DNA of 64,000 nt from an uncultured bacterium (lineage in GTDB: Bacteria; Patescibacteriota; Minisyncoccia; UBA6257; GWB1-50-10). Below, in pieces: positions 2,945 to 3,216 of the stretch (position 1 is its first letter; each line of letters starts with the position of its first letter). The stretch spans positions 732,562 to 796,561 of the forward strand of contig OY970216.1 of the NCBI GenBank assembly GCA_963713955.1, read 5' to 3'. The notes under the pieces are model-generated. The model searched no databases. It saw only the letters and a program-made list of their open reading frames with translations, and was not told the DNA's origin. The position numbers and the translations under genes are program-made.

Positions 2945-3216
2945 AGCCGTTGGCCGGATTCGAACCGGCGACCTACTCCTTCACTGATACCTCCCCTTCG
3001 GATTATACGGGAGGGTTAGACTGTATCTTTCCGCCAGGGGCGGACCCTTGTCAGTCGTTCGCTCGCCTAATTTTTTGCGTTGCAAAATTTTGGCGGGACG
3101 GTCTGATCCGCCGATGAGGTGGACTTTAACCGTTATTCGGGATTCACGATGAAATTGCTCTCATCGTGGGCAGTCAATCTACCATGGAGTTGCTCTACCA
3201 GCTGAGCTACAACGGC
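2945..3216 (-). tRNA. tRNA with ~198-nt intervening sequence (putative group I intron) in the anticodon loop; anticodon GUG (His) or GGU (Thr) depending on the junction
   Basis: 5' exon GCCGTTG-TA-GCTCAGCTGGTAGAGC-A-ACTCC (3216..3186) and 3' exon GGAGT-AGGTC-GCCGGTTCGAATCCGGC-CAACGGC-T (2979..2945). The acceptor (GCCGTTG/CAACGGC) and anticodon (ACTCC/GGAGT) stems are perfectly complementary across the ~200-nt gap. The intron has GACCGTC...GACAAGGGTCC-like segments. Confidence 0.65.

Follow-up and report, generated by a model that had tools for sequence, protein, structure and literature searches.

A stretch of 64,000 nucleotides (nt) from an uncultured bacterium of the Patescibacteriota (contig OY970216.1, positions 732,562 to 796,561 of the forward strand, assembly GCA_963713955.1), referred to here in its entirety as the window, very probably carries on its minus strand, from 3216 to 2945, a transfer RNA (tRNA) gene for tRNA-Thr(GGU) that is interrupted between U36 and A37 by a self-splicing group I intron of 199 nt. 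The two exons and their junction can be read directly, and the secondary structure of the insert, with both elements of its pseudoknot, is conserved at a single site in about 100 lineages. Catalysis by the RNA itself, with or without a helper protein, is most likely, judging from the Azoarcus pre-tRNA-Ile intron.

The split tRNA gene

The 5′ exon (3216-3181), in RNA sense, consists of the acceptor strand GCCGUUG, UA, the D-arm GCUC-AGCUGGUA-GAGC, A, the anticodon-stem strand ACUCC and the loop bases AUGGU (A32, U33, G34, G35 and U36). The 3′ exon (2981-2945) supplies the loop bases A37 and A38, the anticodon-stem strand GGAGU, the variable region AGGUC, the T-arm GCCGG-UUCGAAU-CCGGC, the acceptor strand CAACGGC and, at 2945, the discriminator U, with no encoded CCA. 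Splicing in silico yields a 73-nt cloverleaf in which all 21 of 21 stem pairs are Watson-Crick. ARAGORN with introns allowed reports tRNA-Thr(ggt) i(37,199), and each of the in-silico spliced versions is called as a 74-base tRNA. Without that option ARAGORN misses the gene, as does the Rfam tRNA model, which gives only a distorted 18.7-bit match. Complementary tRNA halves separated by an insert of about 198 nt had been described in the original prediction with no strand stated; the halves are present as described, on the minus strand, and the insert measures 199 nt (2982-3180). An arrangement of this kind is far beyond chance.

Conservation of the insertion site

Relatives of the split gene were collected in two ways. 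A genome collection was scanned with bases of the tRNA-Thr(GGU) exons only, separated by 185 to 215 unspecified bases, and this returned eight species (three Saccharibacteria, one Yanofskybacteria, one metagenome-assembled genome (MAG) of the Patescibacteria group and three MAGs with other labels), in all eight of which the insert is homologous to that in the window. Metagenomes were scanned with a pattern for the intron core, leaving the host gene unspecified, and this gave more than 120 contigs; the counts that follow are lower bounds among the matches listed. Besides the window, at least 128 loci carry a homologous insert in the same split gene. When the group I junction rule is applied, by which the 5′ exon ends in U and the intron ends in G (the U(-1)/omegaG rule), 108 members have the insert after U36 and a loop of AUGGUAA or UUGGUAA. 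The remaining 21 comprise 16 with the same exons and five that are cut by contig ends, and all evaluable relatives use the same site of tRNA-Thr(GGU). ARAGORN attaches labels of Arg, Pro, His or Leu to some relatives; we rejected these, as they reduce to arbitrary splice-point choices once the junction rule is applied.

There are at least 102 distinct introns in at least 97 distinct tRNA sequences, and they are 55–76% identical to the window intron. Occupation of one exact site at this level of identity argues for long residence rather than recent transposition, and retention at one site of one tRNA in about 100 divergent lineages, in an intron that carries no homing endonuclease, suggests that it has long been passed on vertically.

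Covariation support for a group I fold

We aligned 101 distinct introns with MAFFT. RNAalifold, unguided, predicts P1, P2, P4, P5, P6, P7, P8 and P9, with double compensatory changes at 27 of 41 pairs; to this we added the outer P7 pair as well as P3 and P9.0, which RNAalifold cannot predict. In the full structure 97.1% of 4712 cells hold standard pairs, compared to 30–41% when the 3′ partners are slid by one to three columns, and the covariation score is 0.483 as against 0.06–0.09 in the slid controls. Changes on both sides are seen in 30 of 47 pairs, and none of 500 shuffles reaches any of the observed measures. The helices follow the order P3-P4-P5-P5′-P4′-P6-P6′-P7-P3′-P8-P8′-P7′, which makes the P3/P7 pseudoknot.

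All of the helices are 94–100% paired, with double compensatory changes in P3, P5, P6 and P8. In P1, 101/101 sequences have the splice-site U•G and the two flanking G-C pairs, and the fourth pair covaries (GU 41, AU 29, GC 9, UA 1). P2 shows double compensatory changes in all nine of its family pairs. P3 is paired in every sequence, with three C-G to U-A swaps and two U•G, and P4 likewise, with U•G replaced by C-G in 17. The three basal pairs of P5 all covary, its distal part being species-specific; in P6 all five family pairs covary, the first of them as GC 79, AU 14, CG 6 and UA 2. The same holds for the four family pairs of P8 and the five pairs of P9. P9.0 is 99% paired, one of its pairs occurring as GC 53, AU 42, UA 3 and CG 1 and the other as CG 51, UA 44 and UG 4. 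The topology of P7 (A[C]GACUG/CAGUCU, next to J8/7 AAGAUA) is that of G[A]GACUA/UAGUCC in the published seed described below; the search pattern included these bases.

The window copy and its proposed splicing

The elements of the window copy are listed in Table 1. Following transcription of the minus-strand precursor, the intron would fold into a group I core in which G34, G35 and U36 together with the first two intron bases pair with the guide CUGCC to form P1, so that the 5′ splice site carries a U36•G wobble. P3-P8 and P4-P6 would stack around P7, where the G-C pair beside the bulged C would provide the guanosine pocket. Free guanosine would attack after U36; the two-base-pair P9.0 would bring omegaG (2982) into the same pocket; and the 3′-OH of U36 would attack after omegaG, so that U36 becomes joined to A37 and the intron is released. 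The predicted product has the anticodon loop AUGGUAA and would read ACC and ACU codons. At 199 nt, the insert at site 36/37 of the anticodon loop has no room for an open reading frame (ORF), in keeping with bacterial tRNA group I introns, which lie in the anticodon loop, carry no ORF and measure about 200–260 nt.

A number of observations weigh against a self-splicing group I intron. Hardly any covariation signal comes from P4 or P7, which do not vary, and the lack of variation in P7 and J8/7 across the family follows from the search pattern, which fixed both. P3 has only 3 base pairs (bp). Because the members were trimmed by a rule that requires omegaG, the independent support for it is the covariation of P9.0; since P9.0 covaries next to the terminal G, the 3′ end is nonetheless fixed independently of that rule. 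In the window copy two pairs are non-canonical: distal P5 contains an A·C, and P6 a C·A (alignment columns 139/172). The identical intron in a sister strain (contig L129) is uninformative, as the whole 2-kb flank is identical. Standard models perform poorly: Rfam Intron_gpI (RF00028), at its gathering threshold and at E≤10, gives no match in this region of the window or in 20/20 relatives tested, and the window intron escapes an nhmmer profile made from the 26 sequences of the published seed. A covariance model (R1) that we rebuilt from the seed core of those 26 published introns (166 positions, 29 pairs) gives the window copy a noise-level score of 8.4 bits (E=1.2), although the model is weaker than the authors' own, as P1 and some of P2, P5 and P8 dropped out when the seed was re-aligned with MAFFT. 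The check originally proposed, with Infernal group I models, thus did not recover the window intron.

The alternative that survives best, an improbable one, is that the window copy is a decayed relic that no longer splices. The gene would then be a tRNA-Thr(GGU) pseudogene, with ACC and ACU read by another tRNA, for example tRNA-Thr(UGU). The two copy-specific non-canonical pairs would fit such a history, as would the unusually short P8 and the lowest score with the published-seed covariance model, and the search for a second tRNA-Thr(GGU) was confined to the 64-kb window. However, every invariant column of the family is kept, and at near-invariant columns the window copy departs only by the P6 C·A mismatch and by longer P5 and P6 hairpins, so that the departures are limited to the periphery in P5 and P6. 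The exons are flawless, the short P8 is also found in other species (L021, L032 and L107), and an A·C can be isosteric to a wobble pair. A leave-one-out profile made from the other 100 family sequences has its sole window match at 3180→2982 on the minus strand, with a high score of 109.5 bits (E=3.7e-33). A functional, self-splicing intron is the reading we retain.

Splice junction and identity of the host tRNA

Four junctions yield a 7-nt anticodon loop when spliced in silico, and only one of them, U36|A...G|A37, agrees with the U(-1)/omegaG rule; it produces the loop AUGGUAA with anticodon GGU. Because this is the sole such junction, is used by all resolved relatives and has the covarying P9.0 beside its terminal G, the host gene is tRNA-Thr(GGU), spliced after U36, and not a tRNA-His. 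G1-C72 and C2-G71, known from E. coli as Thr identity pairs, are shared together with U73 by the split gene and the neighbouring tRNA-Thr(UGU) at 3707-3778.

The original prediction had left two outcomes side by side, splicing after U33 or G34 to give GUG (His) or after U36 to give GGU (Thr), and its arithmetic is correct for both. The U33 and G34 junctions also produce a cloverleaf, which ARAGORN calls tRNA-His(gtg), but either the intron would have to end in A or the 5′ exon in G, which breaks the junction rule; U36 sits in the P1 wobble pair in every aligned sequence, and P9.0 fixes the terminal G. Furthermore, the gene has U at -1 and a U discriminator as opposed to the G-1/C73 of bacterial tRNA-His, and all evaluable relatives resolve to GGU. 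The His outcome is extremely improbable, and the Thr outcome stands.

Removal of the insert by proteins, that is by an endonuclease of the archaeal/eukaryal bulge-helix-bulge type plus a ligase acting at the canonical 37/38 position, would leave the identical mature sequence, and a helix between UGGUA (positions 33-37) and UAUCA, close to the 3′ end of the intron, could form in the window copy. That helix is confined to the window copy, the family consensus there, GGUGUAAGCG, being unable to form it, and a conserved bulge-helix-bulge (two 3-nt bulges and a 4-bp helix) was not found at the junctions among the family homologues. The protein-spliced introns of archaea and eukaryotes resemble the insert in lying in the anticodon loop beside position 37, but they are short, lack a ribozyme core and are cut by an endonuclease. 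Protein removal would make a conserved ribozyme-like core of 200 nt needless. The covariation seen is instead that of the anticodon bases with the guide in P1 and of the bases preceding the terminal G with J7/9 in P9.0. The ribosomal RNA (rRNA) genes of the window are bacterial, and bacteria are not known to possess the splicing endonuclease. We regard this route as scarcely credible, and self-splicing remains our preferred explanation.

Orientation of the insert

The minimum free energy (MFE) fold of the insert recovers all of the nested helices (z = -3.95). The plus strand folds equally well, with the same z-score, so folding energy alone decides nothing. That symmetry, and the presence in the insert of a hairpin that recurs elsewhere in the window, are what could be said for the view that the tRNA gene was split by an unrelated mobile element, either a miniature transposon or a repeat, and that the apparent structure belongs to the plus strand. 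The wobble pairs point the other way: across the alignment G•U cells outnumber A·C cells by 367 to 41, and the functional strand is therefore the tRNA-sense strand. With one exact site in at least 97 distinct tRNA sequences, members at 55–76% identity, no terminal repeats or target duplication and the architecture of a group I core, a mobile insertion can be dismissed with near certainty.

Table 1. Positions in the window of the split tRNA-Thr(GGU) gene, the parts of its intron and the recurring hairpin stem.
Feature	Position	Strand	Description
5′ exon	3181..3216	minus	tRNA-Thr(GGU) positions 1-36; from direct sequence reading, in-silico splicing and ARAGORN
Group I intron (very probable)	2982..3180	minus	199 nt, A(+1) at 3180 to omegaG at 2982; from the U(-1)/omegaG rule, family profile and covariation
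P1	3169..3183	minus	G34 G35 U36|A G with internal guide CUGCC, loop AUUGA; U36•G wobble at 5′ splice site
P2	3145..3168	minus	10-bp hairpin CACGAUGAGA/UUUCAUCGUG with GNRA tetraloop GCAA; from MFE fold
P3 5′ strand	3139..3141	minus	CCC, pairs with GGG at 3045-3047
P4, J4/5, P5	3098..3133	minus	P4 ACGGUU/GACCGU; P5 UCCACC-UCAUC-GGCGGA at 3107-3123
P6	3062..3097	minus	CCCGCC/GGCGAG with one C·A mismatch, plus A/U-rich extension hairpin
P7 5′ strand	3052..3058	minus	A[C]GACUG with bulged C and candidate guanosine-binding G-C pair; partner CAGUCU at 3018-3023
P3 3′ strand	3045..3047	minus	GGG; forms the P3/P7 pseudoknot
P8	3030..3044	minus	Short hairpin UCCGCC-CCU-GGCGGA
J8/7 and P7 3′ strand	3018..3029	minus	AAGAUA, CAGUCU; matches AAGAUAUAGUCC in published seeds Mba143, Pgr210 and Mle24
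P9.0, P9, omegaG	2982..3016	minus	P9.0 AC 3015-3016/GU 2983-2984; P9 CCUCCC/GGGAGG; omegaG 2982
3′ exon	2945..2981	minus	tRNA positions 37-73; from direct sequence reading, in-silico splicing and ARAGORN
UCCGCC/GGCGGA-stem hairpins	2-18, 1684-1699, 3030-3044, 3107-3123, 3612-3628, 12118-12133, 13173-13188

Relationship to known tRNA introns

Group I introns of tRNA genes are already known. According to the preprint by Williams (2020; bioRxiv 10.1101/2020.01.27.920355), those of bacteria have been extended from 4 to 21 classes, including a class Thr.5Ug with the same tRNA context and site as the window intron, and the published seed of these introns is labelled IC3 in the database that the preprint cites. 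The Thr site-5 class is therefore not new, and its Thr.5Ug count in that preprint may include the lineage of the window.

The seed Rba53.Thr.5Ug shares with the window intron the context ggU|A, the site 36/37 after the fifth loop base and the U(-1)/omegaG ends, and its P1 is near-identical (ggUA-GAUU-UGcc in Rba53, GGUAG-AUUGA-CUGCC in the window). Its core differs, however: Rba53 has a typical IC3 core (AAAUUCGGGGAAA, GUAGAGACCA, AAGGGAUGGUCC) with a 6-bp P3 and a length of about 258 nt, whereas the window lineage has GAAUAACGGUUAAAG, CGAACGACUGACAAGGG and AAGAUACAGUCU, a 3-bp P3 and lengths of 169–256 nt. By sequence the nearest published seeds are Pgr210.Thr.2Ug and Mba143.Tyr.4Ug, which are collinear with the family profile (E=0.002 and E=0.02, respectively) from L2 to P7′ and share with it GAUAACGGUGAA, ACCGUGG and AAGAUAUAGUC, although they occupy other positions (site 2 for Pgr210; site 4 of tRNA-Tyr for Mba143) and have a 6-bp P3 and a P7 of the G[A]GACUA type.

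The Azoarcus pre-tRNA-Ile intron, which is 205 nt long and self-splices in vitro (PMC13168695), likewise lies in the anticodon loop after position 36, is compact and lacks an ORF, and it has the same set of elements as the window intron, namely P1, P2 with a GNRA loop, P3 to P9, P9.0, a bulged P7 and omegaG (PMC13168695). It differs in its host tRNA and shows no significant sequence match; P7 is G[A]GACUA/UAGUCC in Azoarcus and A[C]GACUG/CAGUCU in the window, and a 6-bp P3 with J3/4 AAA in the former contrasts with the 3-bp P3 and J3/4 GAAUA of the latter. The intron of cyanobacterial and plastid tRNA-Leu(UAA) (Leu.3Ug), the classical self-splicing group I intron of a bacterial tRNA, is similar in its location in an anticodon loop and in its mechanism class, but lies between 34 and 35, is about 220–250 nt long and is found by Rfam-based pipelines.

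The introns of the family range from 169 to 256 nt among the 101 aligned sequences, and 28 of 100 are under 190 nt. Intact members of only 169–172 nt are seen at L021:4732-4900 and also at L088, L038, L051 and L057, with P9.0 paired and a correct 3′ exon; these, and all members under 190 nt, are smaller than the Azoarcus model intron.

The rebuilt model R1 performs better on the family than on the window copy. Among 100 family loci it matches 30 introns over their full length, 11 of them at E<0.01, the best with 37.1 bits (E=2.4e-6), and as a positive control it picks out, at 44–95 bits, four canonical introns that interrupt other tRNA genes on these contigs. The lineage is tied to the group I introns published from bacterial tRNA genes, and the window copy is tied to the lineage. 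The group I assignment put forward in the original prediction is thereby upheld, by the covarying P1 to P9.0 and the link to published introns; the suggested IC3 label is not established for the window copy.

We note that the four canonical IC3-type introns stand beside the Thr(GGU) intron on the same contigs, at L069:3487-3685, L078:796-961, L082:84-262 and L108:11263-11460. Provisional ARAGORN calls give their hosts as Leu, Ser, Asp and Leu, respectively, and in L078 the two interrupted tRNA genes are about 200 nt apart. A weak match of the seed profile (E=0.067) to its own P3-P5 segment (CCCGAAGAUAUCGGGGAAACCC) lies in the window at 59518-59556 on the plus strand; R1 did not report it, and it is probably due to chance.

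Significance of the lineage

The compact lineage, common among uncultured bacteria of the Candidate Phyla Radiation (CPR) type, is missed by standard tRNA and intron finders. Since default ARAGORN, the Rfam tRNA model and Intron_gpI all fail to find the gene, the genomes concerned appear to be without tRNA-Thr(GGU), and completeness checks and inferences from codon usage are distorted. Lui et al. reportedly noted the same annotation problem in general terms in 2021. Correct decoding of ACC and ACU would also depend on the folding of a ribozyme in organisms with very reduced genomes.

Quite possibly, and we put this forward tentatively, these introns are not simply further IC3 tRNA introns but a distinct, ultra-compact group I lineage (3-bp P3, A[C]GACUG/CAGUCU P7, down to 169 nt) that is fixed at 36/37 of tRNA-Thr(GGU) across a broad range of CPR/Patescibacteria and is systematically overlooked by default tRNA finders and by intron detection based on Rfam. 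If so, tRNA-Thr(GGU) would be wrongly scored as missing in CPR/Patescibacteria genomes. Should the shortest members (169-172 nt) self-splice, they would rank with the smallest group I ribozymes found in nature. For the design of a minimal group I ribozyme below the size of that from Azoarcus, the family alignment (101 sequences, 169–256 nt) offers a ready-made set. The basic picture is unchanged, because tRNA group I introns are well known.

A recurring hairpin

A hairpin in the insert had been noted to recur at 2-18 and 3612-3628, and this is borne out, with one mismatch in each copy and the 3612-3628 copy in the opposite orientation. The 17-nt hairpin is P5 of the intron (3107-3123, exact), and 0.16 matches would be expected. 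The copy at 2-18 is a native hairpin of the 23S gene in the same orientation relative to the transcript; the inverted copy lies 9 nt downstream of a tRNA-like fragment. Six exact copies of the stem UCCGCC/GGCGGA and the P5 variant lie within 1-13188, a part rich in stable RNAs, and the other 50 kb has none (0.04–0.06 expected). The contexts are mixed: a 23S hairpin, a terminator-like site followed by U6, P8 and P5 of the intron, an intergenic position and the tip of a perfect 19-bp hairpin. Over-representation of the hexamers was considered as the cause and rejected, as it predicts 0.06 occurrences where six are seen. Among the relatives, recurrence of the P5 hairpin near the intron was found in 1/102 loci, where it is a self-palindrome, most loci being too short to include the 23S gene. 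The recurrence in the window is real and, as far as the loci of the relatives extend, is not a family trait.

Genomic neighbourhood

The window contains the 5′ part of a 23S gene at 1-1560, whose match shows a 283-nt insertion near model position 230 (roughly at 1018-1383), and a 16S gene at 13279-14699. The two are 11.7 kb apart, so the rRNA genes do not form a single compact operon. Between them (1560-13279) are a tRNA cluster, rpmG, PCMT, a signal peptidase and type IV pilus genes (PilB/T2SSE, PilC/T2SSF and pilins). Together with a LAGLIDADG ORF next to the 16S gene, described below, this layout would fit a genome of the CPR/Patescibacteria. A 56-amino-acid (aa) ribosomal protein L33 gene lies at about 2698-2868 on the minus strand, between the split tRNA and tRNA-Trp, as placed from the gene calls of the sister contig L129 (ENA ERZ25039477). 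Just upstream of the split tRNA, a 62-aa ORF at 3262-3450 (minus strand) is preceded by a GAGGAGG ribosome-binding site and is also called in L129; it has no Pfam match.

The tRNA region of L129 is identical to that of the window, and its gene calls leave a gap exactly at the split tRNA. The two sequences differ at 119 positions (7.6%), all inside the 23S gene, while the adjacent 2 kb (1561-3644) are identical, an odd distribution for an rRNA gene. An argument for purifying selection drawn from the 100% intron identity was dropped on this account.

On the minus strand at 3638-3700, 7 nt after tRNA-Thr(UGU), there is a tRNA-like 3′ fragment (...GGAGGUUCGACUCCUUUCUCCGGCUCCA) for which ARAGORN calls an implausible 82-nt tRNA-Arg(gcg) overlapping the Thr gene and Rfam gives no match. 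Synteny with L129 ends exactly at the 3′ end of this fragment (about 3644), upstream of which L129 has HTH, M78 peptidase, ParB and DNA methylase genes; this suggests that the break is an integration or recombination junction.

Just past the 3′ end of the 16S match, a 142-aa ORF on the minus strand (12531-12959) matches LAGLIDADG_1 (Pfam E=6e-16) and is flanked by the stem hairpins at 12118 and 13173. Insertions associated with rRNA have been reported in CPR bacteria, and this ORF may be part of one.

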